A stretch of DNA of 64,000 nt from an uncultured virus (IMG/VR IMGVR_UViG_3300028593_001674) (Duplodnaviria > Heunggongvirae > Uroviricota > Caudoviricetes). The DNA lies in IMG/VR virus record IMGVR_UViG_3300028593_001674. One strand, given 5' to 3'. Position numbers and translations under genes: made by a program. Below are positions 10,881 through 42,106 of this stretch, one piece after another. The notes beneath the pieces were generated by a model. It did no database searches, was not told the DNA's origin, and saw nothing but the letters and a program-made list of their open reading frames with translations. The number at the start of each line of letters is the position of its first letter. Position 1 is the first letter of the stretch.

Positions 10881-10886
10881 ATGACT

Positions 10887-10908
10887 AAGGGAGACGTTTC
10901 TCCCTTTT
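10887..10908 (+). terminator. terminator-like hairpin after the SSB gene
   Basis: AAGGGAGA-CGTT-TCTCCCTT followed by TT. Confidence 0.55.
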
Positions 10909-10931
10909 ACATACACAAGGTGGTGATTTTA

Positions 10932-13802
10932 TTGAGCAGACGTGTACTTTCAATCGATTTAGAAACGTATAGCGATGTAGATCTCGTAAACTGCGGTGTT
11001 TATAGATATGTTGAGGGTGACTTTCATATTCTGCTGTTTGCTTACGCTTTTGATGATGAAGATGTGCAGTGTATTGATCTTGCCTGTGGTGAGAAATTGC
11101 CGCAGGAAGTTGTGAATGCAATTTTTGATGACAATATTATAAAATCTGCATGGAACGCACAATTTGAGCGGACTTGCTTATCAAAGTATTTCGGAACACA
11201 GCTTTCGCCGGATTCATGGCAATGCACAATGGTCTGGGCAGCGAGTTTATCGCTTCCGCTAAAATTAAAACTTGCGGCACAGGTGTTAAAAACAGGAGAA
11301 CAAAAAGATGATGCAGGTGAACGGTTGATTCGATATTTCTCTATTCCATGCAAGCCCACAAAATCCAATAGCGGCAGGACGAGAAATCTTCCCGAACACG
11401 CTCCAGAGGACTGGCAGACTTTCAAAAGCTATTGCATTCAGGATGTGCGGACAGAACGTGACATTCGTAAACGGTTAGAGAGTTTTCCAATGTTACCGCA
11501 GGAATGGGATTACTACCACATGGATCAGCGAATTAATGACCGTGGTGTACTAATTGATAAAGAACTGGTACAGCAGGCTATCATCTGCGACATGATGCTG
11601 TCCGAAGAAATGACGAAAAGAGCCTATGCTTTGACTGGTCTTGAAAACCCAAATTCCGTATCACAGTTGAAAAAATGGCTTGATGAACGTGGAATATCCG
11701 TTGATTCACTTGGCAAGAAAGATGTTGCATCACTCATCGCTGATCTGGACAAGCACAGTATCGATTCCGAAGCTCTTGATATGATGAAGCTGAGATTACA
11801 GATGGCGAAATCCTCCGTCAAAAAGTATCAGGCGGCAGAACGTTGTATTTGCAATGATGGCAGAGCGCATGGGTTATTCCAATTTTCCGGTGCAAATAGA
11901 ACCCAACGTTGGGCTGGGCGTTTAATTCAATTACAAAATCTGCCTCAGAACCATATCTCTACGCTTGATGAAGCAAGAGAGCTTGTAAAAATGGGCTGTT
12001 TCGATATGATTGAAACGCTCTACGGCAACACGCCGGACATTCTGTCGCAACTTATCCGCACCATGCTCATTCCGAAAGAGGGCTGCGAATTTATCGTAGC
12101 AGACTTTAGTGCTATAGAAGCTCGTGTACTTGCGTGGCTTGCCGGAGAACAATGGCGGCTGGATGCTTTTCAGCGTGGTGAGGATATCTATTGTGCATCG
12201 GCATCAGAGATGTTTGGAGTGCCGGTAGTGAAGCATGGGATTAACGGAGAATTGCGCCAGCGCGGAAAGGTTGCCGAGCTTGCCTGTATCGCAGAGGGAC
12301 AGCTTGTTCTGACCAATTACGGCTTAGTGCCAATTGAAAATGTAACAACAGACATGAAAGTCTGGGACGGAGAGGAGTGGGTACAACATGATGGTGTCGT
12401 ATTCAAAGGAGAAAGAGAAGTTATCACTTATGACGGACTTACAGCAACCCCCGACCATCTCGTCTGGGTTGAGGGTAAACATTCCCCGATACGCTTTGAA
12501 AATGCCGCCAGAAGCGGAGCGCATCTCATACAAACCGGAGATGGTAGGATTTCAATACGGATGGGCGAAAATTGTAAATTCAGAATTCCGATGGGTAACA
12601 AATTGTCGATGTTATGTGGAAGTAGAATGTGCAGATTGTGGCAAGAGAAGATGGACAGATTATTATGCTCTCCGACGTGGAAAACCGAAGCATTGTCCAG
12701 AATGCAAAAAAGTTCCAAAGTGGCTGAGGTTTCGCCTAAAAGTGGCAAAGCATCGTTGCGACAATCCAAACGATCCCACATACAAAAATTATGGTGGACG
12801 TGGCATTCGATTCGATTTTCCAAGTGTGCAAGCAGCAGGTATGTGGATTATCAAAAATTTAGGGATCCCAGAGAGGGAGCTGGAATTAGATCGCATCGAT
12901 TGCAACGGAGATTATGCACCAGGCAATATTCGATTTGTTACAAAACAAGTCAATGTAGGAAACAGAAGAATTACAGTTTTAAGCAGATTCGAGCAAAAAT
13001 ACTGGCCTTACTCGTATCATGTAGTTTGCAGGAAATTAACGCAAGGTATGACAAGAGAAGCTATTATAGAAGAGGCAAAGAAGGCTGTAATAGAACATCG
13101 ATCCGGATGGAAGCTGATAAGTGCAAGGCTCGACTTTATGACATACGAAATGCCGGACGACATCATCGTTTTACCGTATCGGGAAAACTTGTCCACAACT
13201 GCGGATATGGGGGCGCAAGCGGCGCATTGATCTCAATGGGTGCATTGGATATGGGACTGAAAGAATCGGAACTGCCCGACATTATTTCCTCTTGGCGTGA
13301 AGCAAACCCAAATATTGTGAAATTCTGGTATGCCGTAGAGAAAGCGGCAATTGAGACGGTAAAAGATCACAATGATAGAACGGTTGGGCGAATCGGGTTC
13401 CAGTTCTCAGCAAATACACTCTGGATCGTGTTACCGTCAGGACGCAGACTTGCATATATCAAGCCGAAGCTACAGCCGAACCGTTTCGGTCGCATGTCAC
13501 TTACCTTTGAGGGACTTGGAGCAAACAACAAGTGGACGCGTGGTGAGACCTACAGCGGCAAGCTGACAGAGAACATCACTCAGGCAACTGCCCGTGACCT
13601 GCTTGCAGAAGCTATACGTCGCATGGAGCTTGCAGGACTGGATATTGTCGGTCATGTGCATGATGAGGTGATATTGGAAGTACCGAAGGACAGTATCACC
13701 GTTGACGAGGTATGTGGCATTATGAATCATAATCCGAAGTGGGCTGACGGCTTACCGCTTTCCTCCGCAGGATATACAGGGAACTACTATTTCAAGGACT
13801 AA
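10932..13802 (+). CDS. family A DNA polymerase with intein
   Basis: DLET exonuclease motif, DFSAIEAR motif A, KVAELA/CGYG motif B split by the intein, HVHDE motif C. Confidence 0.93.
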   Translation: MSRRVLSIDLETYSDVDLVNCGVYRYVEGDFHILLFAYAFDDEDVQCIDLACGEKLPQEVVNAIFDDNIIKSAWNAQFERTCLSKYFGTQLSPDSWQCTMVWAASLSLPLKLKLAAQVLKTGEQKDDAGERLIRYFSIPCKPTKSNSGRTRNLPEHAPEDWQTFKSYCIQDVRTERDIRKRLESFPMLPQEWDYYHMDQRINDRGVLIDKELVQQAIICDMMLSEEMTKRAYALTGLENPNSVSQLKKWLDERGISVDSLGKKDVASLIADLDKHSIDSEALDMMKLRLQMAKSSVKKYQAAERCICNDGRAHGLFQFSGANRTQRWAGRLIQLQNLPQNHISTLDEARELVKMGCFDMIETLYGNTPDILSQLIRTMLIPKEGCEFIVADFSAIEARVLAWLAGEQWRLDAFQRGEDIYCASASEMFGVPVVKHGINGELRQRGKVAELACIAEGQLVLTNYGLVPIENVTTDMKVWDGEEWVQHDGVVFKGEREVITYDGLTATPDHLVWVEGKHSPIRFENAARSGAHLIQTGDGRISIRMGENCKFRIPMGNKLSMLCGSRMCRLWQEKMDRLLCSPTWKTEALSRMQKSSKVAEVSPKSGKASLRQSKRSHIQKLWWTWHSIRFSKCASSRYVDYQKFRDPREGAGIRSHRLQRRLCTRQYSICYKTSQCRKQKNYSFKQIRAKILALLVSCSLQEINARYDKRSYYRRGKEGCNRTSIRMEADKCKARLYDIRNAGRHHRFTVSGKLVHNCGYGGASGALISMGALDMGLKESELPDIISSWREANPNIVKFWYAVEKAAIETVKDHNDRTVGRIGFQFSANTLWIVLPSGRRLAYIKPKLQPNRFGRMSLTFEGLGANNKWTRGETYSGKLTENITQATARDLLAEAIRRMELAGLDIVGHVHDEVILEVPKDSITVDEVCGIMNHNPKWADGLPLSSAGYTGNYYFKD
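12285..13199 (+). mobile_element. intein in PolA (305 aa)
   Basis: starts CIAEGQLV, block B TPDH, ends GKLVHN followed by extein Cys. Confidence 0.92.
12502..13230 (+). CDS. HNH-type homing endonuclease in an alternative frame inside the PolA intein (start codon uncertain)
   Basis: CADCG/CPEC Zn motifs, HRCDNPNDPTYKNYGGRGI, LDRIDCNGDYAPGNIRF. Confidence 0.8.
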   Translation: MPPEAERISYKPEMVGFQYGWAKIVNSEFRWVTNCRCYVEVECADCGKRRWTDYYALRRGKPKHCPECKKVPKWLRFRLKVAKHRCDNPNDPTYKNYGGRGIRFDFPSVQAAGMWIIKNLGIPERELELDRIDCNGDYAPGNIRFVTKQVNVGNRRITVLSRFEQKYWPYSYHVVCRKLTQGMTREAIIEEAKKAVIEHRSGWKLISARLDFMTYEMPDDIIVLPYRENLSTTADMGAQAAH

Positions 13803-13842
13803 GGCGAATTTTTAGTACAACGCAACGAAAGGAATTAAGCAT

Positions 13843-14073
13843 ATGAGCAGAACGTACAAAGACCGAAAGGGCTATAAATCAAGAAAAAGGCAGAATAATC
13901 GCATGAACATCCTCAACCACAGCCGTGGCTCTTATGAGGATTACGATCACACCGATCAGGAGCTGTATGTGTACGACCAGTGCTGCGAAAACTGCTGTTA
14001 CTGCGGATATTGCTGTCATACACCGTATCCGTCTGGGTGGTGCGAAAATTGGAATGACGGAGGTTATCGTTGA
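13843..14073 (+). CDS. small Cys-rich hypothetical protein
   Basis: AAGGA RBS; stop overlaps the next start. Confidence 0.5.
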   Translation: MSRTYKDRKGYKSRKRQNNRMNILNHSRGSYEDYDHTDQELYVYDQCCENCCYCGYCCHTPYPSGWCENWNDGGYR

Positions 14074-14516
14074 GAGAATATGTTGTCGAGAACGAGTTTG
14101 TGAAGGCAGTTAAAGCCGCCGGAGGTGCAGCGTACAAGCTTACATCACAGACAGCAAACGGACTGCCGGACCGACTTGTTCTGTTCTTCCCTGCAAAAAC
14201 GGTATTCGTAGAACTGAAAGCACCGGGAAAAATGATGCGTCCGCTTCAAAGGAAAAGGCGGTATCAGCTCATGAAATTGGGATTTCCGGTCCTGTGCATT
14301 GACCGCATAGAACAGGTACAGCCATGCATTGAAGCAATATTAAGCTGGACTCCCGGTACAACCTTTCCGGAGGGTATCGGGGCGAAAATTCCTGATCTGG
14401 AAGTGGTAATGTTGCCTGCGGATATGGACGATTTCGGAGAGATACTTGAACCGATAGATCCGGACTATCTTGCAGAGTTCTATGAACTGGGTGAGGATGG
14501 TGATTATAATCAGTAA
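14070..14516 (+). CDS. VRR-NUC domain nuclease
   Basis: GLPDRL, FVELKAPG. Confidence 0.85.
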   Translation: MREYVVENEFVKAVKAAGGAAYKLTSQTANGLPDRLVLFFPAKTVFVELKAPGKMMRPLQRKRRYQLMKLGFPVLCIDRIEQVQPCIEAILSWTPGTTFPEGIGAKIPDLEVVMLPADMDDFGEILEPIDPDYLAEFYELGEDGDYNQ

Positions 14517-15147
14517 ATTTATTGATTTGACAGGAAGGAGATTCGGAAAGTTACTGGTACTCAAAATTGACGAAAGCACTTCCGATGATTTAAAGAATTG
14601 CTCCTGGATTTGTCAATGCGATTGTGGCAATCAGATAATTGAAACAGGTCGCAATTTAAGACGGGGTCACAAAAAATCTTGTGGATGCTTACGAAGTCCA
14701 CACGGATATTCACAGACACCAGAATATAGTTCATATCAAAAAATGATTAACAGGTGCTATAATCCTGATTTTGAAAAATATCAGTACTACGGCGGTCGAG
14801 GGATAAAAGTTTGCGAAAGATGGTTTAATGATATAAATGCGTTTATGGAGGATATGGGAAAAATGCCATCTCCCGAATGGTCATTAGATCGAATTGATGT
14901 CAATAAGGATTATTCCCCTGAGAATTGTCGCTGGGCTAATAAGTATACTCAAGCCCGAAATAAGAGGGTGCAAGCCCGATCGAGAACAGGCGTTACTGGG
15001 GTAGTTCCTGGAAATGGTGGATATGTTGCGACCTTGAGGTGTAATGGACACCTAAATTATCTTGGAACATTCTCAACAGTTGAAGAAGCGCAGATTGCAA
15101 GAAAAGTAGCTGAAGAAAAATATTGGAAGGATGGTGATACATCTTGA
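14497..15147 (+). CDS. free-standing HNH/AP2 homing endonuclease
   Basis: DLTGRRFGKL, CQCDCG, YGGRGI, LDRIDVNKDYSPENCRW, AP2 YLGTFSTVEEA. Confidence 0.85.
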   Translation: MVIIISKFIDLTGRRFGKLLVLKIDESTSDDLKNCSWICQCDCGNQIIETGRNLRRGHKKSCGCLRSPHGYSQTPEYSSYQKMINRCYNPDFEKYQYYGGRGIKVCERWFNDINAFMEDMGKMPSPEWSLDRIDVNKDYSPENCRWANKYTQARNKRVQARSRTGVTGVVPGNGGYVATLRCNGHLNYLGTFSTVEEAQIARKVAEEKYWKDGDTS

Positions 15148-22687: not shown

Positions 22688-23167
22688 ATGACTCTTACAG
22701 AAAACTTCATCCGTGAAGCAATACACCTCGACAGCGGTGCTGAGATCATGTACGGCACTGATGAGGTATATGATACTTACCCATGCCGCATTCCAACTGT
22801 GGAATTTCAGCTCATAGCAACGGACGCACTTGTCGAGGTCGCTGACTGTATCCGCCTTGAAAAGGGATACAAGCCCATGCACCCGAGAGACGGCAGGACC
22901 GATGATGTAGACACTGACGGTTTCTATGACTTCTACATTGGCATATCAAAACTGCCGAACGAAAGTGTAGATGTACAGCTTGACAGCAGCATCACCTTCA
23001 TTGTTGTCAATTCCGATTCCGATGATAACGAGGATATGTACGGCATCGAGCTGACAGACTCTGAAGTTGAATATGTGCTGGCTGTACTTGAACAGCAATG
23101 CAGGAAGTATGAGAGCAAGACTTGTGCGCAACTACTTGATGAAGCAGAGAGGGAGATGATAAATTGA
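22688..23167 (+). CDS. hypothetical acidic protein
   Basis: ORF coupled to the nrdD start. Confidence 0.55.
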   Translation: MTLTENFIREAIHLDSGAEIMYGTDEVYDTYPCRIPTVEFQLIATDALVEVADCIRLEKGYKPMHPRDGRTDDVDTDGFYDFYIGISKLPNESVDVQLDSSITFIVVNSDSDDNEDMYGIELTDSEVEYVLAVLEQQCRKYESKTCAQLLDEAEREMIN

Positions 23168-26100
23168 GAATTATCAAACGGAACGGATGTGAAGTTCCCT
23201 ATGACTGCGAAAAGATAAGAGCCGCAATTACAGCGGCGAATGCAGAGGTTGATGATAAAATCAGCGATACTGTTATCGGCTTTATTGTCGGGAATGTAGA
23301 AAAGCGGTGTGAAGCCCTTGCAAGACCTGTCCATGTCGAAGAAGTCCAGGACATGGTACTCGATGAACTTGACAATGCCGAAGCGTACAAACTTGCACGC
23401 CATTACAGCGAATACAGACTGCTGCATGAACAGCAGCGCAGGATGAATACCACGGACGGAAAGATCCTGAGCCTGCTCGAACGCAATAATGAGGAAGCCA
23501 AACAGGAAAACGCCAACAAGAACCCGATCATCAACAGCACACTCCGGGACTATATGGCGGGTGAGGTCAGCAGAGACATCTGCCGTCGATTTCTCTTTCC
23601 GGAGGATATTATCTCTGCCCATGATGATGGTATCATTCATTTACACGATCTGGACTACATCGCAGAACCGATGCACAACTGCTTTAGTGGAGCCACTCGT
23701 TTCATAACCGATAGAGGTATACGACAGTTCAAGGAGTTTCGTGATGGTGACTCTGTATATGTTAAAGATTTGAATGGAGATCTCAGACTTGCTACCATTC
23801 ACACATACGGAAAGAGAAAAATGCAGAAAGTAACTCTTCAAAACTGCCGTATGGAAAGAACAGTAGTATGCACAGCAGACCACAGATGGCTACTAAAGGA
23901 CGGCACGGTTACAACATCACTAAAAGTTGGCGATGTTCTAATCGGACTTAAAGATTCAACCGGATATACGATAAACAGCTACGAAGAGGCATTTGCTTTC
24001 TGTATTGGTTTCATTGTCGGAGACGGCTGCGATCATTCTCAAGAAGGATGGTGCGGACAGACACAGGTGCGCCTATGCGGAAGAAAAAATGTCTACAAAT
24101 GGATTTTCGACATGGCGGGTTTTTCATCATATCAGATTAGAGAAAACGGTGACCATTTAATGCGACTTCGTGGAAAGCTGAAACAGGATTTTTTGAATGG
24201 TAAGGGATGGCGGTTTATGCCTGTTCACCTAAAGGCATTAGCTTTTAAGGGATATTATGCAGCCGATGGTGCGATTAACTCAAATCGTGCATCAACATGC
24301 GATGAACGTATAATGGAATTCATTGAGGAAACTTCAGGCATAGCGGGATTCTACATTTCGAGTAGAAGCACAACCGTTCGAGATACACTGTACAAAGATA
24401 ATCACAAGCTAACCACATACCATTTTGTAAAATATAATCCCGTTAATCAAATGTGGAAAGTAAAATCTATCGAATCCTATAATCATCGTTCCAAAATGCT
24501 CTGCTACTGTGTTGAGGAACCAGTAACGCATAGTTTCACATTGGATGGTGGTATTGTGACTGGGAACTGCTGCCTTGTCAATCTGGAAGATATGCTCCAG
24601 AACGGTACGGTGGTATCCGGCACGATGATCGAAAAGCCGCACAGCTTTTCCACTGCCTGCAATATCGCAACGCAGATCATTGCGCAGGTGGCATCAAACC
24701 AGTATGGCGGGCAGACAATTTCTCTTGCACACCTTGCTCCTTTTGTGGATATCAGCCGACAAAAAATCAGAGCAGAGATATTCGAGGATGTAAACTGCGA
24801 TTGCGGATGTAAGCTGAGTGACGAAGAACTGGATCATATCGTGGAAAAGCGTGTGCACCGGGAAGTCAAGCGTGGGGTGCAGACCATTCAGTATCAGATA
24901 AATACACTGCTCACGACCAATGGACAAACGCCTTTCGTGACGGTATTCATGTATCTCGATGAAGTTCCGGAAGGACAGACCCGCGATGACCTTGCAATGA
25001 TTATCGAGGAGACTCTGCTCCAACGCATTGAAGGTGTCAAGAACGAGAAAGGCGTGTGGATCACACCGGCTTTTCCGAAGCTGATCTATGTTCTCGATGA
25101 GGACAATATTTCTTCGGAATCAAAATATTACTATTTGACAGAACTTGCGGCAAGATGTACAGCAAAAAGAATGGTTCCCGACTATATCTCCGCCAAAGTT
25201 ATGAAAAAGCTGAAAGGTGATGTGTACGCCTGCATGGGCTGCCGATCATTCCTCACGCCGTCTGATGAACACAAGTATTACGGCAGATTCAATCATGGCG
25301 TTACCACGATAAACCTTGTTGATGTCGCTTGCTCTTCCGGCGGTGATGAAGACAAGTTCTGGCAGCTACTCGATGAACGCTGTGAACTGTGTTTTAAGGC
25401 TCTGATGTGTCGCCACAACCGTCTGAAAGATACGCCGTCCGATGTTGCTCCGATTTTATGGCAGAACGGTGCGCTTGCCCGACTCGGAAATGGTGAAGTC
25501 ATTGATGATCTGCTGTATCACAATTACAGTACGATCTCACTCGGCTATGCCGGAATCGCAGAAATGACCTACCGCATGAAAGGCCGCTCCCATACAGAGC
25601 CGAAGGGAAAAGAATTTGCACTTGCTGTAATGCGATTTCTGAACGATAAGTGCAAGAGTTGGCGTGAGAAAACCGGCATCAGTTTCTCGCTGTATGGCAC
25701 GCCAATGGAAAGCGTCACCTACAAATTTGCACAGTGCTTACAGCGGCGATTCGGTATCATTCCTCATGTAACGGACAAAAGCTACATCACCAACAGCTAT
25801 CATGTTCATGTGACTGAGCCGATCGATGCGTTCAGCAAGCTGAAATTTGAAGCGGAATTTCAGGAATTATCTCCCGGCGGTGCGATAAGCTATGTGGAGG
25901 TTCCGAATCTCCAAAACAATATCCCTGCGGTACTGTCGGTCATGGAATTTATCTATGAGAATATAATGTATGCCGAGCTGAACACGAAATCAGATTACTG
26001 TCAAGCCTGCGGATTTGACGGCGAAATCGGCATTGTTGAGGAGGACGGCAAGCTGATATGGAAGTGTCCCAACTGCGGAAATCGTGACCAGCGGACAATG

Positions 26101-26193
26101 AATGTATGTCGGCGAACCTGCGGCTATCTCGGCACGCAATACTGGAATCAGGGCAGAACCGCTGAAATCAAGGATCGGGTGATGCACCTGTGA
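23164..26193 (+). CDS. nrdD: anaerobic (class III) ribonucleotide reductase with intein
   Basis: ATP-cone IIKRNG, HLHDLDY, MGCRSFL, RRTCGY glycyl-radical motif. Confidence 0.95.
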   Translation: MRIIKRNGCEVPYDCEKIRAAITAANAEVDDKISDTVIGFIVGNVEKRCEALARPVHVEEVQDMVLDELDNAEAYKLARHYSEYRLLHEQQRRMNTTDGKILSLLERNNEEAKQENANKNPIINSTLRDYMAGEVSRDICRRFLFPEDIISAHDDGIIHLHDLDYIAEPMHNCFSGATRFITDRGIRQFKEFRDGDSVYVKDLNGDLRLATIHTYGKRKMQKVTLQNCRMERTVVCTADHRWLLKDGTVTTSLKVGDVLIGLKDSTGYTINSYEEAFAFCIGFIVGDGCDHSQEGWCGQTQVRLCGRKNVYKWIFDMAGFSSYQIRENGDHLMRLRGKLKQDFLNGKGWRFMPVHLKALAFKGYYAADGAINSNRASTCDERIMEFIEETSGIAGFYISSRSTTVRDTLYKDNHKLTTYHFVKYNPVNQMWKVKSIESYNHRSKMLCYCVEEPVTHSFTLDGGIVTGNCCLVNLEDMLQNGTVVSGTMIEKPHSFSTACNIATQIIAQVASNQYGGQTISLAHLAPFVDISRQKIRAEIFEDVNCDCGCKLSDEELDHIVEKRVHREVKRGVQTIQYQINTLLTTNGQTPFVTVFMYLDEVPEGQTRDDLAMIIEETLLQRIEGVKNEKGVWITPAFPKLIYVLDEDNISSESKYYYLTELAARCTAKRMVPDYISAKVMKKLKGDVYACMGCRSFLTPSDEHKYYGRFNHGVTTINLVDVACSSGGDEDKFWQLLDERCELCFKALMCRHNRLKDTPSDVAPILWQNGALARLGNGEVIDDLLYHNYSTISLGYAGIAEMTYRMKGRSHTEPKGKEFALAVMRFLNDKCKSWREKTGISFSLYGTPMESVTYKFAQCLQRRFGIIPHVTDKSYITNSYHVHVTEPIDAFSKLKFEAEFQELSPGGAISYVEVPNLQNNIPAVLSVMEFIYENIMYAELNTKSDYCQACGFDGEIGIVEEDGKLIWKCPNCGNRDQRTMNVCRRTCGYLGTQYWNQGRTAEIKDRVMHL
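23680..24567 (+). mobile_element. intein in NrdD (296 aa) with LAGLIDADG-like endonuclease
   Basis: CFSGAT start, CTADHRW, IGFIVGDG and GYYAADG, ends IVTGN followed by Cys. Confidence 0.9.
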
Positions 26194-30449: not shown

Positions 30450-31074
30450 TCTTATAAAAAGTATCGGCTACGACCAAGGCGAGATCCTTCGCAACATTCT
30501 AAAACTCCATGTGCCGGAGGGAAAGATCGACTGTGATCCGACTTTCAGCACTGGGGCTTTCTACAACGGAACAGGCATTGCTATTCCGCTGTACCGATTT
30601 GATATTTCTCCGCAGCGGAGCGATGTAGTACAAGCAGATGCCCGAAATCTTCCGCTTGCAGACAGCAGTATTTCCTGCATGATGCTCGATCCGCCGTTTT
30701 TAGCGACAAAGGGGAAATCACTGAGAAGCGGTAAAGGCAATATCATCAACAGACGTTTCGGTGTATATCCTGATGAGAAGAGTCTGCATCGGTGTTATGA
30801 GGAGATGCTTGCGGAAGCGTACAGAGTACTGAAACCGGACGGCATTCTGATCTTCAAGTGTCAGGATAAGGTCAGCAGCGGCAAGCAGTATATGAGTCAT
30901 GTGTATATCATAAACGAGGCGGTACGGATAGGCTTTTACCCAAAAGACTTGTTTATCTTGCTTGCAAAAAGCCGTCTGGTAGCCGGTTGGCAAAGAAATC
31001 AAAAACATAGCCGAAAGTATCATAGTTACTTTCTGGTATTTCAGAAAAATAACAGGCGTATTGAGTACGTCTGA
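30442..31074 (+). CDS. small N6/N4 DNA methyltransferase
   Basis: DPTFSTG, DARNLP, DPPF, RVLKPDG. Confidence 0.8.
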   Translation: MSDLIKSIGYDQGEILRNILKLHVPEGKIDCDPTFSTGAFYNGTGIAIPLYRFDISPQRSDVVQADARNLPLADSSISCMMLDPPFLATKGKSLRSGKGNIINRRFGVYPDEKSLHRCYEEMLAEAYRVLKPDGILIFKCQDKVSSGKQYMSHVYIINEAVRIGFYPKDLFILLAKSRLVAGWQRNQKHSRKYHSYFLVFQKNNRRIEYV

Positions 31075-31087
31075 GTTTGGAGGTAAA

Positions 31088-34000
31088 ATGGAACAGAATA
31101 AACTGACGCTTGGCAGCCTGTTTGACGGCTCGGGCGGATTTCCACTTGGCGGCATTCTTGCCGGAATAGAGCCGATTTTCGCATCAGAAATTGAACCTTT
31201 TCCAATTCTAGTCACGCACAAACGACTGCCGGGCGTAAAGCACTACGGCGATGTATCCAAACTCAGCGGCACAGAGTTGCCACCGGTGGATATCATCACG
31301 TTCGGCAGTCCATGTTTTCCAGAGGGTACTCTTGTACTGACTGATGAAGGGTATATGCCAATTGAAGAAGTTACAGTTGGTATGAAGGTTCTCACACATA
31401 AGGGGAGATGGAAAACCGTAACTGCTGCCGGTGCAAAATACGGAGAGACTGTTCTACTAAAGGGTAACCACTATGGCTTGGAATGCACAAAAAACCATCC
31501 GATTTACAGCAGCGGTGAAAAAAAGTTTTTTCCCCAGCTTGGAAATGGAAAACGAGGAAATTACACACTGTTGACTGATAAAAAAGAGTGGGTAGCGGCA
31601 GAGCAGATGAAAGGTAGACTGTGGGCAGTTCCACATCATATCGATAGTCTGCCTATTGCCTCGCCTGTGTATTCAGGCTCATGGCGACAGAAAACCATGC
31701 CAGAACTGTCAGACAGCTTGTTCTATTTTGTTGGCAGATGGCTCGGTGACGGATGGGTATGCAACGGTCAGCGATCAGGTCGTCCTGCAGGAGAAACTTA
31801 CGGTAAAATATATCTGTGTGATTCTCTCGATAAAGAAAACGAACTGATCAGTACAGTTCGTACAGTTACCAAGAGGTATACGGTCTGCCATGAAAAAAGT
31901 ATAGTCAAGGTATCATTTGTCTCACAGGTTTTTGCTGAATGGCTGACAGATAATTTTGGTGAGTATGCATCAGGCAAAAGAATGCCCGGATGGGCGTTTG
32001 GTATGCCGTTCTCCTATAAACAGAGCTTGCTGAAAGGTATCATTGATTCTGACGGAAGTCCCGTTGCCGGAAAAGATAACTGTCACAGAATCTCAACTAT
32101 CAGCAAAGCTCTTGCAGAAAGTGTCCGCCTTCTTGCAGAAGGTCTGGGATACTCAACAACTGTTTTTAAGAGCGTAGTCGATAAAACAAAGAAAATCGAA
32201 GGTAGGATCGTAAATCAGCATGACTACTATACTGTAGCAGTGACGAAAGAAGGCAGGCGGAAACATCTGACAGACAGTTTACACGGCTGGTATCGAGTGC
32301 GGAGCGTATATCCGACTCATAAAGCAAAAGTTGTATACAATCTGACTGTGCAAGATGACAACAGCTATATCGCAGATGGTATCGTTGTTCATAACTGTCA
32401 GGACCTGTCTATCGCCGGAAAACGTGCAGGAATTCACGGCAATCGGTCAGGATTGTTCTTTCAAGCAATCAGAATCATCAAAGAAATGAGGAATGCTACA
32501 AATGGCAAATATCCAAGATACGCAATCTACGAAAATGTCCTTGGTGCCTTCTCCTCAAACGGAGGAAATGATTTCAAAGCTGTCCTCGAAGCAGTTATCG
32601 GAGTTAAAGAAGAAGGGATCGAGGTGCCTCCGCCTAAGAATCACCGATGGCCGAAAGCGGACGTATATCTGGGAGACGGATGGAGCGTGGCTTACCGAGT
32701 TTTCGACGCTCAATACTGGGGCGTCCCCCAGCGAAGATCAAGAATCTACCTTGTCGCAGATTTTGCTGGCGGAAGTGCCGGAGAAGTATTATTTAAGTCC
32801 GAGGGCGTGTCTGGGTATACTCCGCAGAGCTTCCGTTCGTGGGAAGGAGCTGCCGGAGGTGCTGAAGAAAGCTCTGGAACGGCAGGCAGGCGGTCTGACG
32901 CTGGAGATAGAACCTACTGCCTGAATACACAAGGCAACAGCGGTGTTGGCATCACCGAAGGCAAGTCGCTCGCATTAGTCTCGCAAGACCATGGCAATCA
33001 TCCGGCGGTACTTCATGCCGCAGGCTTCTCCACGGAACACAGCGCAAAGGCGCGGAGTATCGGCTATGAGGAAGAAGTATCTCCGACTTTGAGAGCCGGT
33101 GTTGTTCCGGCAGCGCTTTCCGTGGAAAATCATCCGACAGACGGTCGGGTGAAGATCCGTGAGGATAACACCTGCCAGACACTTTGCAGCAGAGCCGGGA
33201 CAGGCGGCAACAATGTACCGCTTGTGGCTGAACCAATCACGCTGAAAATACGCTGCGGTAAACCGGGTGGTGGGAAAGGAGCGCAGGTCACTTATGATAA
33301 GTCATCAACATTGTCAACAAACAACGACCAGACGCTATTTCAGCCCGAAATAAAGGCATTCGGTGTATGCAGTAAGCATTCCAATGCGATGATGTCGGAC
33401 AACCCGCACAGCGGTTTTTATGAAGCGACCACAAGCAGAACCCTTGACCAGAGCGGCGGAAACAGCGTCACATCGAATCAGGGCGGAATCTGTGTGGTTG
33501 CACCTGCGCCAGAAACCTACGATGTACGTTTCACATCGGACGGCACGAAAAACGCAAGAGGTCACTGCTATCCTACAGAAATCTCACGCTGTCTCGATAC
33601 AAGCGAAAGCAATCCCGACAGCAACCACGGCGGTGTATGCGTGGTCGCTCTCGAACCCGGTGCGGCATCGAGAGTCGGCGGTCATATCTACAGCGACGGT
33701 AAATCCGGTACGCTCCGAGCCAATGCAGGAGATAATCAGCAAGCTGTCATGATGCCGGAGACTTATTCGCTGCAAGGCTCGATGATAGGTCGTGCAGATA
33801 AAAACGGCCCGCAGGGTGACGGTATTAATAAAGATGTGTGCTTTACCTTAAACTGTGCAGATCATCACGCAGTTGCGGCACCGGCTGATTCCTCCTATAC
33901 AATATCCCGTGACAATCACTTCGCTGTTGCCGAAGATGTATCTGTAACGGCAGTGGCAAGAGGTCCTGCAACTGTGGCGCACCCGGAAGCCGACCACTAC

Positions 34001-34465
34001 AGCACAAGCAAAAATTCTCATCACACCGTTGCCGCACATGAACAGGCAAATACACTGGTCGCATCGGACTGGAAAGATCCTCCGCTTGTCAACGATACGC
34101 CCAATCAAGAACCGGCATACATCGTCCGCAGGCTAACTCCGGTGGAATGTGCAAGATTGCAGGGCTTTCCCGACTGGTGGTGTTCTGATCTCGCAATTTC
34201 CGATCCTTCTGATGATGAAATTGCATTCTGGACGGAAGTCTGGGAAACTTGGCGCAGCCTCACAAATCCCAATGGCAAACCAAAAACGGAAAAGCAGATC
34301 AGAAAATGGCTGGCTGATCCGTATACGGATAGTGCGGAGTATAAATTGTGGGGAAATGGAATTTCATTGCCGATAGTTTTTTTCGTTCTATCCGGTATTG
34401 TTTGGGCAGCGAATGCAGCAAATTGTGAACGAACTGATACTATGTTATTTTCCGAATTCACATAA
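31088..34465 (+). CDS. C5-cytosine DNA methyltransferase with intein and long variable region
   Basis: SLFDGSGG, GSP/CQ, ENV, QRRSRI, RRLTPVECARLQGFP, LWGNG. Confidence 0.92.
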   Translation: MEQNKLTLGSLFDGSGGFPLGGILAGIEPIFASEIEPFPILVTHKRLPGVKHYGDVSKLSGTELPPVDIITFGSPCFPEGTLVLTDEGYMPIEEVTVGMKVLTHKGRWKTVTAAGAKYGETVLLKGNHYGLECTKNHPIYSSGEKKFFPQLGNGKRGNYTLLTDKKEWVAAEQMKGRLWAVPHHIDSLPIASPVYSGSWRQKTMPELSDSLFYFVGRWLGDGWVCNGQRSGRPAGETYGKIYLCDSLDKENELISTVRTVTKRYTVCHEKSIVKVSFVSQVFAEWLTDNFGEYASGKRMPGWAFGMPFSYKQSLLKGIIDSDGSPVAGKDNCHRISTISKALAESVRLLAEGLGYSTTVFKSVVDKTKKIEGRIVNQHDYYTVAVTKEGRRKHLTDSLHGWYRVRSVYPTHKAKVVYNLTVQDDNSYIADGIVVHNCQDLSIAGKRAGIHGNRSGLFFQAIRIIKEMRNATNGKYPRYAIYENVLGAFSSNGGNDFKAVLEAVIGVKEEGIEVPPPKNHRWPKADVYLGDGWSVAYRVFDAQYWGVPQRRSRIYLVADFAGGSAGEVLFKSEGVSGYTPQSFRSWEGAAGGAEESSGTAGRRSDAGDRTYCLNTQGNSGVGITEGKSLALVSQDHGNHPAVLHAAGFSTEHSAKARSIGYEEEVSPTLRAGVVPAALSVENHPTDGRVKIREDNTCQTLCSRAGTGGNNVPLVAEPITLKIRCGKPGGGKGAQVTYDKSSTLSTNNDQTLFQPEIKAFGVCSKHSNAMMSDNPHSGFYEATTSRTLDQSGGNSVTSNQGGICVVAPAPETYDVRFTSDGTKNARGHCYPTEISRCLDTSESNPDSNHGGVCVVALEPGAASRVGGHIYSDGKSGTLRANAGDNQQAVMMPETYSLQGSMIGRADKNGPQGDGINKDVCFTLNCADHHAVAAPADSSYTISRDNHFAVAEDVSVTAVARGPATVAHPEADHYSTSKNSHHTVAAHEQANTLVASDWKDPPLVNDTPNQEPAYIVRRLTPVECARLQGFPDWWCSDLAISDPSDDEIAFWTEVWETWRSLTNPNGKPKTEKQIRKWLADPYTDSAEYKLWGNGISLPIVFFVLSGIVWAANAANCERTDTMLFSEFT
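31313..32395 (+). mobile_element. intein in the C5-MTase (361 aa) with LAGLIDADG endonuclease
   Basis: CFPEGT start, CTKNHP, VGRWLGDG and KGIIDSDG, ends IVVHN followed by the catalytic Cys. Confidence 0.93.
32502..32924 (+). CDS. alternative-frame polypeptide nested in the C5-MTase gene (putative second subunit)
   Basis: LSQILLAEVPEKYYLSPRACLGILRRASVRGKELPEVLKKAL; GAGG 10 nt before ATG. Confidence 0.55.
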   Translation: MANIQDTQSTKMSLVPSPQTEEMISKLSSKQLSELKKKGSRCLRLRITDGRKRTYIWETDGAWLTEFSTLNTGASPSEDQESTLSQILLAEVPEKYYLSPRACLGILRRASVRGKELPEVLKKALERQAGGLTLEIEPTA

Positions 34466-38969: not shown

Positions 38970-39440
38970 GTGGCTGTGAGAGGAAGAAAACCCAAACCTA
39001 CCGCCATGAAAGAACTGGAAGGCAATCCGGGCAAGCGACAACTAAATGCATCCGAGCCGAAGCCAGTAAAAAAAGCCCCGCCCTGCCCGAAATGGCTTGA
39101 ACCCGAAGCAAAAAAGGAATGGCGCAGGCTGTCAAAGCAGCTTGAACAGATCGGCGTTCTGACCGAGGTCGATCAGGCGGCATTTGCGTCCTATTGTCAG
39201 GCATATGCCCGTTGGAAGGAAGCCGAGGAATTCATGACGCAGCACGGCACTATCGTCAAAACGAAATCCGGCTACTGGCAGCAAGTTCCGCAGGTATCCA
39301 TCGCACAAACTTATCTGAAAATCATGAATAAGATCGCAGAGCAGTTCGGACTGACACCGGCGGCAAGAAGCCGTATCACTGCCGGTGCGGAGATGAAGGA
39401 CGCTTCCGATGATATGGAAAAACTGCTCGGAGGTGGATAA
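38970..39440 (+). CDS. terminase small subunit (P27 family)
   Basis: RGRKPKPT, GNPGKR, FGLTPAARSR. Confidence 0.92.
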   Translation: MAVRGRKPKPTAMKELEGNPGKRQLNASEPKPVKKAPPCPKWLEPEAKKEWRRLSKQLEQIGVLTEVDQAAFASYCQAYARWKEAEEFMTQHGTIVKTKSGYWQQVPQVSIAQTYLKIMNKIAEQFGLTPAARSRITAGAEMKDASDDMEKLLGGG

Positions 39441-42106
39441 TGGCGAGAACCGCAAAAGCAAGAGAAAGACCGAAAAATTATCCGAAGCTGACAGACTACA
39501 ATCCCTCACGCTTCATGCTGCCGGATTCGCACTACGATGCAGAAAAGGCAGACAGGGCTGTTCGTTTTATCGAAAACCTCTGCCATACCAAAGGTCGCTG
39601 GGCGGGTAAACCGTTCTGGCTGCTGCCTTGGCAGGAGCAGATCATACGGGATATTTTCGGTATCGTCAAGGAGGATGATACACGGCAGTTTCGGACGGTG
39701 TATGTCGAGATCCCTAAGAAAAATGGAAAACAGCTTGCATTGGATACACCTATCCCGACTCCGCAGGGATTCACCAATATGGGTGACCTGAAAGTCGGTG
39801 ATACTGTATTTGACGAAAACGGTAAGCCGTGTCATGTCATTGCGAAAAGCCCTGTAGATGATACGGAACAAGCGTATAAGTTGACTTTCAAGGACGGCAG
39901 TTCGATCATTGCAGGAGAACGGCATTTGTGGAATTGCCAGTATATTTACGGAAAACGCAGAGATGTCCTGTGGACAACGGGTGAAATATATCGCCGAACG
40001 ACGGAATATAGGGAACGGTTTTCTGACAGACCGCAGGCATTCAGAGATTCACTTATCAGAATCCCTGTTTGTGGTGTGCTTCAAACAACAAAGGCTGACC
40101 TTCCCGTTGATCCATACCTTTATGGCTACTGGCTCGGAAACGGCAATGCAATGAAGCCGGAGATCACGATAAGAACGGAGGATGTTGATGATGTAATATC
40201 GTTTATCCCGTATAAGCCACACAATCGTTATCCGCAGAAATGCGGCGGCAGCGAAATTGTAAAATACAATGAGCTGAAACCAATATTGCTGGATTCATTT
40301 CGTGAAAAGAGAATCAGACCTGAGTATCTGAGAGCATCAGAACCTCAGCGATGGACGCTCCTACAGGGGTTAATGGATTCAGATGGCTGCATAGGTGAGC
40401 GTAAGGGTCAAAGTGTATATGTTACCACATTGCAGGATCTTGCGCTATCTGTCCGAGAACTGCTGTAGTCACTCGGAATCAAAAACGCAGTCAAATGCGA
40501 ACCTTCTACGCGGCATGGTTGGCCTACCGGCGAAATACTGTATATCATTCGTTTCACCACTTTCGATAATCAGCCAACAACAAGACTGATAAGAAAAGGT
40601 GTAAGATCACGCATGAGGACAAGAGATACACGTTCCTGCTATCATTATCTGCTGGATATTCAACCTTTGGATTATCCTGTGAAGATGCAGTGCATTCAGG
40701 TGGACAGCCCAAGTCATCAATATCTCGCAGGTACTTCAATGATACCTACGCACAACAGTGAGCTTGCCGCAGCGATAGCGCTGTATCTGCTTTACGCCGA
40801 CAACGAGCCATCCGCCGAGGTATACGGTGCGGCAGCAGACCGTCAGCAGGCTTCTATCGTGTTTGAGGTTGCAAAGCGAATGGTAGAATTAACGCCTGCG
40901 CTCCTGAAACGCTCCAAAATTATGGCGGCAACAAAGCGGCTTGTGAACTACAGCAATGTGGGATTTTATCAGGTTTTATCGGCGGAAGTCGGAACAAAGC
41001 ACGGTCTGAATGTATCTGGGCTTGTTTTGGATGAGCTTCATGTGCAGCCTAATCGAAATTTAGTGGATGTTCTCACAAAAGGTTCCGGCGATGCACGTAC
41101 TCAACCGCTGTACTTTCTTATCACAACTGCCGGAACTGACAGGAATTCTATCTGCTTCGAGTACCACACAAAAGCGCAGGATATTCTGAAAGGACGGCGC
41201 ATTGATCCGTCTTTTTATCCGGTTATTTATGGGCTTGATGACGGCGACGACTGGAACGCAGAAGAATCGTGGTACAAAGCAAATCCCTCGCTGGGTCATA
41301 CTATCACAATTGACCGTGTGCGGGATGCGCACCGTGAGGCACTCACAAATCCGGCGGAAGAAAATGTATTCCGTCAGCTTCGTCTTGATCAATGGGTTGG
41401 CAGTTCAGTTGCATGGATTCCGGAGCATATTTACGACAAAGGAAATATTCCGATTGATTTGGAATTGCTCCGTGGGCGAGAGTGCTATGCAGGACTTGAT
41501 CTTTCCAGCACAAGTGACATAACCGCTTTTGTACTGGTGTTTCCACCTCTCCACGAGGGTGATAAATACATCGTTGTTCCTCATTTCTGGCTGCCGAGGG
41601 ATACGCTCAACCTACGTGTCCGCAGAGATCACGTTCCCTACGATGTGTGGGAGCGAATGGGACTTTTCCACATCACAGAGGGCAATGTTGTGGACTATAA
41701 CTTCGTGCGAAAAACGGTCAACCAACTGCATGAGATCTATAACATCAAAGAAATCGCAGCAGACCGCTGGAATGCCACACAGCTAATTACCGATTTACAA
41801 GGCGATGGATTTACCGTTGTTCCTATGGGAATGGGCTTCAAAGATATGTCGCCGCCGATGAAAGAGCTGTACAAGCTGCTGTTAGAGGGAAAATTTATTC
41901 ACGGCGGCAATCCTGTTTTGCGGTGGATGGCTGGAAATGTTGTTGCGGAAATTGATGCGGCGGAAAATATCAAGCCGAGCAAGAAAAAATCCACTGAAAA
42001 AATAGACGGCATTGTGGCATGGATCATGGCGCTTGATCGCTGTATCCGTCATGAGATGCAGGGCAGCGTTTATGATGATCCCGACCATGATCTGGTCATT
42101 ATTTAA
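39440..42106 (+). pseudogene. terminase large subunit with intein; in-frame TAG at 40466-40468 inside the intein
   Basis: IPKKNGK/SE Walker A, LDELH, ITTAG, GLDLSST, KIDG; both ORF pieces in the same frame. Confidence 0.85.
39731..40756 (+). mobile_element. class-3-type intein in TerL with LAGLIDADG endonuclease, interrupted by a stop
   Basis: starts with Gln (QLALDTPIPT); HLW, MQCIQV, PTHN followed by Ser; GYWLGNG and QGLMDSDG. Confidence 0.88.

Follow-up and report, generated by a model that had tools for sequence, protein, structure and literature searches.

Inteins that hold their homing endonuclease (HE) outside the reading frame of the host protein have been described before. Fractured genes, reportedly described by Dassa et al. 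in 2009, are said to be inteins in two halves, separated by a free-standing HE gene. In actinobacteriophages, the available text of a preprint by Gosselin, Arsenault and Gogarten (bioRxiv 10.1101/2025.01.02.630785) reports inteins with an endonuclease VII-like HE in frame 3, as well as antisense HEs of the LAGLIDADG and VSR-like kinds. That text puts forward the hypothesis that a free-standing HE invades the intein, free-standing relatives being found in phage genomes, and, for non-canonical inteins, it names ‘DNA polymerase’ as one host, the polymerase named in the available list of intein hosts being Pol III alpha. A cyanobacterial dnaX intein with an out-of-frame LAGLIDADG HE, whose mini-intein alleles coexist with it, is described in the available part of a second preprint (Phillips, DeSimone, Gogarten, bioRxiv 10.64898/2026.09.14.751524). 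Both preprints of the Gogarten lab, in their available parts, credit the dnaX case first to Gorbalenya 1998, and their accounts differ, the HE being antisense in bioRxiv 10.1101/2025.01.02.630785 and a +2 open reading frame (ORF) in bioRxiv 10.64898/2026.09.14.751524. ShiLan-type phage methylases hold a hidden out-of-frame HNH, which according to the available text is thought to remain in the protein (Arsenault, Gosselin, Gogarten, Genes 2025, PMC11855218). Here, we analyse an intein in the family-A DNA polymerase gene (polA) of an uncultured Caudoviricetes virus, with an HNH-like protein encoded in the overlapping +1 frame. The gene lies in a stretch of 64,000 nucleotides (the window) from the virus record IMGVR_UViG_3300028593_001674. 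A preliminary description of this DNA had characterised out-of-frame cases as rare reports from actinobacteriophages, which agrees with the literature above.

We hold, with a probability of roughly 0.85, that the locus is dual coding and yields a spliced polymerase together with a separately made +1 protein. The polA precursor ORF occupies 10881-13802 on the plus strand, as do all features of the locus given below. It encodes 973 aa in frame 0 and is stop-free across the intein. Pfam DNA_pol_A matches residues 242-466 (E 1.2e-20), and the PHROG profiles phrog_17 and phrog_10285 match residues 20-470 and 774-973, with a homology gap at exactly residues 469-773. The class-1-type intein lies at 12285-13199 (305 aa in frame 0, in the context ...KVAELA|C...HN|CGYGG), at a site which we take to be polymerase motif B. 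It begins with Cys at 12285 (CIAEGQLVLT...) and ends with ...FTVSGKLVHN at 13199, followed by Cys-Gly-Tyr-Gly-Gly. The intein-less Streptococcus phage Javan100 and Oscillospiraceae phage NatCom_21982 read KIAELALGYGG at this site, which puts the insertion point directly after Ala; the residue that follows it is Leu in the empty and Cys in the occupied alleles.

The intein is composed of three parts in frame 0. The N-terminal splicing region (12285-12566) contains Cys1 and the motif TPDH (12447-12458; Thr-x-x-His), which we take to be intein block B, and it is conserved to about residue 94. It is followed by a linker of about 187 aa (12567-13127) that is stop-free, not conserved as a protein and predicted to be unstructured, and by the C-terminal splicing region (13128-13199; ARLYDIRNAG.HHRFTVSGKLVHN) with the invariant R283...N305. 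The +1 Cys codon of the C-extein (13200-13202) is Leu in intein-less alleles. Residues C1, T55, D57 and H58 are among the invariants, the last three in 12/12 sequences. The window has the Cys1 nucleophile, as do the other rows examined (22 of 22) and L012, which was checked apart; the terminal HN|C junction is found in 23/23 rows and reads HN|S in L040 (Vibrio phage 97.13, discussed below). The polA gene is a single ORF in 17/17 rows and is not split like fractured genes. From the intact motifs, the insertion in an indispensable polymerase motif and the fact that a replication gene is conserved, we infer that the polA precursor splices.

The same DNA is open in the +1 frame. Its longest ATG-to-stop ORF, at 12388-13230, encodes an HNH-like protein of 280 aa. 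The 5' end of this ORF overlaps splicing block B, and its 3' end overlaps the C-terminal splicing region together with 31 nt of extein, the stop codon lying at 13228-13230. Against PHROG, the ORF matches phrog_374 ‘HNH endonuclease’ (E 4.7e-18). A free-standing paralogue of the same nuclease family (14470-15147; phrog_374 E 2.9e-72) lies 1.3 kb downstream and is 33% identical to the +1 protein over 129 aa (E 3e-15). This layout had been given in the preliminary description, whose elements are all found in the sequence: normal splicing ends in the PolA frame (Cys1, TPDH and HN|C are all there), a stop-free middle without a recognisable domain (zero stops, and no Pfam model at E≤0.1), a +1 frame open beyond the end of the intein, and motifs shared with the free-standing HNH gene. 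Its placing of the intein end at 13230 is to be corrected to 13199, as 13230 is the stop of the +1 ORF.

The arrangement is conserved among homologues. A blastn search of phage records gave 104 records with polymerase homology, of which 7 match through the intein at ~65% identity. Four were inspected, three of them Streptococcus phages (Javan101, Javan255 and PhiSdyV1524) and one the Gardnerella phage vB_Gva_AB1. In all four, polA is one annotated coding sequence (CDS) of 960-967 aa, open across the intein, and in three a clear homologue of the +1 ORF is present with 259-269 aa. The fourth has an internal stop: in L004 (Streptococcus phage PhiSdyV1524-fexAoptrA, polA CDS nt 1502-2095), the +1 ORF stops after 197 codons and polA stays open, which looks like a nuclease gene beginning to decay. 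Of the polymerase-embedded cases in GenBank phage records, the seven that were inspected are all annotated as ‘DNA polymerase’ only or carry no annotation; the nested gene has been overlooked by annotation pipelines.

A scan of IMG/VR with the +1 protein added 24 loci, with polA open (at least 895 aa) across the full match in 16 of them. Two of the 16 encode a +1 protein 100% identical to that of the window, and in one locus (L005) the DNA is identical over the intein and 60 nt on each side. Among the other loci, L010 carries an upstream rearrangement, both L022 and L023 are truncated, and L024-L028 are deletion forms. Seventeen sequences were aligned over the intein and 60 nt on each side (the window, L001-L004, L007-L009, L011, L013-L015 and L017-L021). 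The alignment excludes L005 (identical to the window), L006, L010, L016 (frame break in the C-extein) and L022-L028; L012 stands outside it and, checked apart, has the same structure. The aligned sequences are ~65% identical in DNA, and the +1 frame is open for 220-233 codons in 16/17 rows. Every one of the 17 full-length homologues that were measured (16 of them in the alignment) has an intein of 309 aa and shows no indel, and the 305 aa of the window reflect deletions of 3 and 9 nt relative to these homologues. Additionally, contigs (not raw reads) of the public runs X4, X5 and X6 jointly cover 12200-12999 and 13007-13300 with 0 differences and 0 gaps.

The nuclease is out of frame in every homologue examined. 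In a search for longer, in-frame versions, 5/7 matches (P0271-P0275) are PolA-N::HNH hybrids that end at the HNH stop. Each of the five changes from frame 0 to +1 at a point of its own; for this reason they look like broken alleles or assembly errors, and they are probably frameshifted alleles or errors of assembly. None of the five returns to frame 0, so that no in-frame version of the nuclease was seen among them, which is weak evidence for its absence.

Selection on the two frames was assessed by three approaches. In the first, +1 codons were shuffled synonymously over 597-609 nt, 3000 times per sequence. The polA frame contains 0 stops in 17/17 rows against 5.1-16.4 expected and stayed open in 0-4 of 3000 shuffles, and the third frame, which served as control, holds 6-20 stops against 7.8-17.2 expected. 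Mean pairwise diversity by codon phase, in windows of 60 nt, gives the same partition of the intein. Up to ~12465, the most variable phase is the third position of frame 0 (0.39-0.61); over 12465-13140 it is the third position of the +1 frame (0.32-0.67 through 13083 and 0.20 in the last window), and from ~13143 it is once more the third position of frame 0. Both frames are constrained at 12465-12555 and 13083-13170, since the frame-0 wobble diversity is low there (0.12-0.25).

The ratio of nonsynonymous to synonymous diversity (pN/pS) was computed for nine pairs chosen, out of 136 possible, to span 63-94% identity. Over 12285-12434, it is 0.08-0.40 in frame 0 and 0.65-2.57 in the +1 frame. 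Over 12541-13082 the values are reversed (0.94-2.39 in frame 0 and 0.12-0.46 in +1), with a +1 pS of 0.66-0.84 in 8/9 pairs and 0.17 in the closest pair. Over 13143-13199 and 60 nt of extein, frame 0 returns to 0.05-0.26 and +1 to 0.81-2.58. In the middle of the intein it is thus the +1 product that is under purifying selection, and at the two ends it is frame 0. This is the pattern of constraint which the preliminary description expected of dual coding (+1 pN/pS of 0.12-0.46, frame-0 stop avoidance in 17/17). What it named as refuting its proposal, an in-frame homologue or compensating indels, was looked for: no homologue is in frame, and the X4-X6 contigs, which are not raw reads, contain no indels.

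Full, mini and empty intein alleles are all present among related phage polymerases. Mini-inteins of 131-168 aa occupy the same site in six polymerases (L024, L026, L027, L028, NatCom_29429 and Javan422), with polA open in all of them. Five of the six are internal deletions with different breakpoints, and the sixth, NatCom_29429, is more diverged. Among the deletion forms, four retain the 5' and 3' ends of the +1 ORF, and L026 retains the 3' end only. Since they still hold ends of the HNH ORF, the mini-inteins look like decay products of the homing cycle and not like ancestors. Because they keep the polymerase frame intact, the frame-0 middle can be regarded as a dispensable linker, as had been proposed when the off-frame linker was said to be tolerated. 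With the linker dispensable and the frames different, the nuclease ORF must be translated separately from the splicing frame.

Structure prediction with AlphaFold2 points in the same direction. For the frame-0 intein, the confidence score (pLDDT) is <50 for residues 84-305, the middle has no secondary structure, and the splicing halves are not assembled. For the +1 protein, pLDDT is ~85 over residues 1-140, and the tail at 187-229, which coincides with the stretch shared with the C-terminal splicing region, is disordered.

The likeliest start codon of the +1 protein is ATG 12430-12432, which gives 266 aa and is, by our reading of the alignment, somewhat better than an even choice. This ATG derives from the Tyr-Asp/Glu-Gly codons directly before block B and is present in 14/17 rows, L011 having an ATG one codon later. 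About 9 nt 5' of it, a GAG-G motif resembling a Shine-Dalgarno (SD) sequence occurs in 14/16 rows with Glu there, and GAG makes up 21-60% of the Glu codons in the exteins of the same genes. Counted by lineage, with close relatives taken once, GAGG is found in 10/12, for which our own binomial estimate against a frequency of 0.4 is ~0.003. Database gene calls are mostly of 270 aa, equal to the 12430 start, which reflects the gene callers only. A start at ATG 12541-12543 (MVGFQYGW; 229 aa) is possible but rather unlikely. It is present in 15/17 rows, and distant relatives have Q, L, T, R, A, E or I in place of its Met. The sole SD-like GGAG lies directly against the ATG and leaves no usable spacing. 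An in-frame upstream ATG lies within the open +1 frame in all 17 rows.

Signals of expression were also searched. A conserved RNA structure at 12470-12560, 5' of the 12541 ATG, was considered and rejected, the consensus fold having -3.9 kcal/mol and a covariation term of 0.04. A promoter scan of 12000-13400 gave 4 promoter-like sites against 2.3 expected, none of them 5' of the +1 ORF on the plus strand, and a terminator scan of the same interval found none. One contig of the RNA run X9 covers 12200-12411; it is not proof of transcription, because RNA libraries can contain DNA.

The +1 family is broad. In clusters at 90% identity, 429 relatives of the +1 protein were found at E≤1e-3, and the best 120 of the 429 are 50-83% identical, none with a Pfam domain and most from ~1-kb contigs. 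A profile search of clusters at 50% identity gave 80,612 matches at E≤1e-3, 10,236 at 1e-10 and 122 at 1e-30. Thirteen of the distant proteins start with residues such as MTDLQQ..., MTALPQH... or MDRLPPH..., resembling the +1 reading of block B, and 8 of the 13 end near ...ESMTS or a close variant. Since these termini resemble the +1 reading of the intein ends, they suggest, as far as a comparison of termini goes, that the distant relatives (P0124-P0160) may also be nested in inteins. Contig scans with the single distant relatives P0133 and P0134 (viral), P0129 (metagenome) and P0124 (genome) found nothing.

A second arrangement was met through tblastn of phage records with one distant relative. 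The family lies inside annotated polymerase genes of Salmonella virus VSe103 (L033) and EBPR siphovirus 2 (L034), and also in the unannotated Vibrio phage 97.13 (L040). In all three, polA carries an intein and the same nuclease family is in frame +2. Two of these inteins share the ELA|C/S insertion site of the +1 type, and the one in VSe103 lies a few residues upstream of it. Frame 0 has 0 stops in L033, L034 and L040, against 5.6, 3.9 and 1.6 expected (P<1/3000, 0.0013 and 0.12, respectively).

An HNH tree was built from 35 proteins (12 close +1, 13 distant, 3 +2 and 7 free-standing), with multi-repeat proteins left out. The +1 group (25 rows) forms one clade with an SH-aLRT of 98, and the +2 group (3 rows) forms another with an SH-aLRT of 99. 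The +1 clade includes proteins at most 50% identical whose N-termini are like the +1 translation of block B. The relation of the +1, +2 and free-standing groups is not resolved (SH-aLRT 88 on a branch of 0.086), and one capture cannot be told from independent captures. The preliminary description had a free HNH gene invade a mini-intein; this is still plausible, but the mini-inteins found are of the deletion type and not ancestors, and the tree gives no resolution on the point.

Further relatives of the family were seen in other settings. In Salmonella phage SAP012 (L035, 3001-3555), an unannotated free-standing member lies between an intein-less polymerase and a VRR-NUC-like gene, a gene order that resembles 13802-15147 of the window. 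In L010 (2383-3702), other sequence stands in place of the N-extein and of most of the N-terminal splicing region, and a sigma-70 region-4-like ORF there continues in frame into the nuclease ORF. The protein P0059 (306 aa, PF08281) has the same sigma-like/nuclease architecture as L010.

The following mechanism would account for the locus. In frame 0, ribosomes on polA would translate the N-terminal splicing region, a meaningless linker of ~187 aa and the C-terminal splicing region. The splicing parts would then associate, excise the insert and ligate the polymerase as ...AELA-CGYGG..., and the sole requirement on the linker would be that it contain no stop codons. In the +1 frame, internal initiation on the same mRNA, most likely at ATG 12430 or else at 12541, would yield a zinc-ribbon and HNH-like protein of 229-266 aa. 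During co-infection, this protein would cut an intein-less polA (...AELALGYGG...), and repair would copy the intein in, which is homing. Internal initiation, nuclease activity and homing are the inferred parts of this mechanism.

The nuclease part of this mechanism depends on the nature of the +1 protein. It contains a four-Cys zinc-ribbon-like motif at 12628-12705 (C30, C33, C52 and C55 in the numbering of the 229-aa form), with C30, C33 and C52 invariant and C55 present in at least 90% of rows. The HNH-like core follows at 12718-12975 (YKNYGGRGI ... LDRIDCNGDYAPGNIRFVTKQVNVGNRR) and is predicted to be beta-beta-alpha, with strands at 115-118 and 130-133 and a helix at 135-142 in the AlphaFold2 model (pLDDT ~80-88). 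The core consensus of the family is YxNYGxRGI...LDRIDxxGxYxxGNxRF...N..N.R. Families labelled HNH in PHROG are the only profiles that match. In hhalign against five canonical HNH_3 (PF13392) proteins, LDRID...GN...N..N falls on iDH......eN...N..n with a probability of 24%. D117 and N129 do not vary, N141 is found in 90% of rows or more, and the three are aligned with the D, N and N of HNH_3; Tyr125 is invariant in 19/19 sequences. With the HNH_3 homing endonucleases, the family shares the predicted beta-beta-alpha and the Asp/Asn/Asn alignment, but it differs in that their model gives no match and in having Arg for His. It also resembles PacI in being without a His general base; in the available part of its description, PacI is an active beta-beta-alpha-Me nuclease of the HNH type with Tyr, not His, as general base (PMC4081073). 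As a lead only, the ESM Atlas neighbours of the +1 protein are viral clusters, some with I-HmuI_NUMOD-like, NUMOD1 or NUMOD3 domains.

Several observations speak against this reading as a whole or against one of its parts. With respect to splicing, the frame-0 intein matched no HINT, intein or other Pfam model at E≤0.1; its matches in PHROG lie solely at residues 17-65 (phrog_26005, of unknown function, and phrog_93). With respect to the start codon, ATG 12430 is missing in L007 and L013, which carry other upstream ATGs, and the window's own SD-like motif 5' of it is weak (GAGAAG, the Glu being GAA). The 12541 ATG is ATT in L008 and L009, and no start codon is universal among the 17 rows. The agreement between runs X4, X5 and X6 is one of contigs and not of raw reads, and the stop avoidance of L040 (P=0.12) is not significant alone. 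With respect to the nuclease, the +1 protein matched no HNH, Endonuclease_7 or other Pfam family at E≤0.1, and PF13392 misses the nuclease-family genes in 5 phage records, in 3 of which it finds canonical HNH_3 genes. Arg118 stands in place of the catalytic His of HNH_3 in 19/19 sequences. Foldseek of the +1 model against the PDB gave nothing at E≤1e-3, and the best nuclease match in a wide structural search, PacI (3m7k_A; Z 5.2, root-mean-square deviation 3.2 Å, 75 residues aligned), is under the tool's stated noise level of 7-8. Searches of NCBIfam gave nothing meaningful, and a sequence-profile search of the PDB gave a chance-level match only (E 0.47). The label ‘HNH’ used in the preliminary description is thus backed by PHROG but not by Pfam, nor by the residue at the catalytic position. 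By its context, the +1 family resembles a phage homing endonuclease, with neither a curated HNH profile that matches nor the catalytic His. On balance, we consider it somewhat more likely than not that the +1 protein is an active homing nuclease.

The rival explanations differ in how much of the dual coding they leave standing. Dual coding stands entirely if the +1 protein is a sequence-specific DNA binder or nickase helper that has lost its catalytic His, the mobility of the intein then being due to another enzyme, or the protein having been co-opted. Arg at the His position in 19/19, the lack of a Pfam HNH match and the weak structural matches would fit such a protein. The same Arg, however, is common to the whole superfamily, including free-standing genes annotated as HNH endonuclease, and the superfamily is huge (80,612 representatives at E≤1e-3), with the contexts typical of homing endonucleases. 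Additionally, Asp117, Asn129 and Asn141 align on metal and structural residues of HNH_3, and PacI is active with a Tyr general base (PMC4081073, available part), Tyr125 being invariant in 19/19; we regard a binder or helper as unlikely. The +1 product could also be reached by programmed frameshifting from the polA frame near 12430-12540, giving a fusion of PolA-N, intein-N and nuclease. The +1 frame is indeed constrained 5' of the 12541 Met, as frame-0 synonymous diversity falls from 0.61-0.94 to 0.26-0.56 over 12435-12540; neither candidate ATG is universal, and DNA variants that encode fusions exist in databases. Yet no conserved slippery sequence or stimulatory stop is seen in the alignment, the 12470-12560 fold is weak (-3.9 kcal/mol, covariation 0.04), an upstream in-frame ATG exists in all 17 rows, and the five fusion proteins switch at five places, like broken alleles or assembly errors. 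Frameshifting is, on this evidence, very unlikely.

The remaining alternatives deny one of the two products. If the +1 ORF were an unexpressed, decaying relic and the polymerase frame alone mattered, the internal +1 stop of L004 and the six deletion forms would be explained; this is contradicted by the +1 pN/pS of 0.12-0.46, by a +1 frame open in 16/17 rows and by the lack of indels in the 309-aa inteins, and we give it hardly any credence. It is likewise most improbable that the insert is an unspliced, tolerated loop of the polymerase, as proposed for ShiLan. No Pfam HINT model matches, and AlphaFold2 does not assemble the splicing halves, as such a loop would have it; but Cys1, TPDH, His-Asn and the +1 Cys do not vary, purifying selection on the frame-0 ends is strong, and the +1 residue is Cys solely in insert-bearing alleles and Leu in empty ones. 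An active polymerase with a 305-aa insert in motif B would also not be expected. The chance that compensating indels of sequencing or assembly have displaced an in-frame endonuclease is close to nil, given that the same frame relation is seen in 17 independent full-length homologues (prophages of isolates as well as metagenomes), that contigs of other runs are identical and that frame 0 avoids stops.

Beyond the preferred reading, in which dual coding yields a spliced polymerase and an independently made +1 protein, there is a more tentative idea about the clade, one which we hold to be somewhat doubtful. Out-of-frame nesting may be the long-term selected state of this His-less HNH-like clade, and not a transient step to an in-frame fusion or a split intein. 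If so, the overlap of the +1 ORF with both splicing regions would tie the fate and translation of the nuclease gene to the polymerase mRNA, and the frame-0 linker would be a natural series of ~190 codons selected only against stops. The +2 clade would then be a second solution to this problem, in another frame but at the shared site of the polymerase.

The window, which is a virus record, has the set of genes of a temperate siphovirus-like phage. Genes of replication and regulation include those of a repressor, an exonuclease, a Gp2.5-like single-stranded DNA-binding protein, polymerase, helicase, primase, NrdD and methyltransferases. Genes of structure, lysis and integration include those of terminase, portal, capsid, tape measure, endolysin and two serine integrases. 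An ORF at 14070-14516, which matches phrog_93 ‘endonuclease’ (E 5.4e-20), overlaps with its end the start of the HNH-like gene at 14470. Other intein-type inserts are present as well. The terminase large subunit (39413-42106) is a single frame broken by one in-frame TAG (40466-40468), which lies inside an intein-like insert with LAGLIDADG-like motifs (...LLQGLMDSDGC...) and the end ...IPTHN|SELAAA. Possible explanations are an intein that is broken or split, read-through, and an error. In NrdD (23164-26190, 1009 aa), the Pfam NRDD match is in two stretches around an in-frame insert of ~300 aa with intein-like ends and GFIVGDG, probably a canonical LAGLIDADG intein. The C5 cytosine methyltransferase (31061-34462, 1134 aa) contains an in-frame intein of the canonical type, in which Hint_2 matches residues 84-126, both LAGLIDADG_3 and Hom_end match 320-398, and Intein_splicing matches 367-445. 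Counting the inserts in polA, terminase, NrdD and methyltransferase, the phage therefore carries at least four of the intein type.

The locus extends out-of-frame HE inteins beyond actinobacteriophages and cyanobacteria to the replicative family-A polymerase of Streptococcus and Gardnerella prophages and of environmental phages. In full-text searches of the literature, no account turned up of this nuclease family within an intein of a family-A polymerase, although the supplementary tables of the 2025 survey may list relatives. Nor did these searches turn up the cases in Streptococcus, Gardnerella and Jerseyvirus; a paper on Jerseyvirus speaks of inteins and HEs only generally. The dataset is an unusually clean one for the study of dual coding, with 17 sequences at ~65% identity, a sharp switch of wobble, a control frame and six natural deletion mutants. 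It raises the questions of how a nested ORF inside a translated gene is initiated, and whether a beta-beta-alpha-Me nuclease can work with Arg replacing the catalytic His.

Compared with the known systems, the actinobacteriophage frame-3 inteins are alike in several respects: the HE is on the sense strand, out of frame and at the position of an in-frame HE, the in-frame translation has no recognisable structure, and free-standing relatives exist. They differ in nuclease family, as no Endonuclease_7 is found here at E≤0.1; in frame and gene, the frame here being +1, or +2 in the relatives from Proteobacteria phages, and the gene that of a family-A polymerase; and in hosts, which here are Streptococcus and Gardnerella phages and phages of wastewater and soil metagenomes. 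The dnaX intein likewise has mini-intein alleles alongside the full form, but it is cellular, lies in the dnaX gene and holds a LAGLIDADG HE. ShiLan shares the out-of-frame HNH with zinc fingers in a stop-free host ORF and poses the same question on the translation of the hidden ORF; it has no detectable splicing domain, whereas full class-1 splicing motifs flank the overlap here. Fractured genes have a free-standing-type HE at the position of the linker and are part of a proposed pathway in which an HE invades a mini-intein, but there the host gene is in two ORFs and splices in trans, and polA is one ORF. The out-of-frame HE intein is, as a kind, already published; the polA case is a new and abundant member of that kind, with another nuclease family and another host gene.

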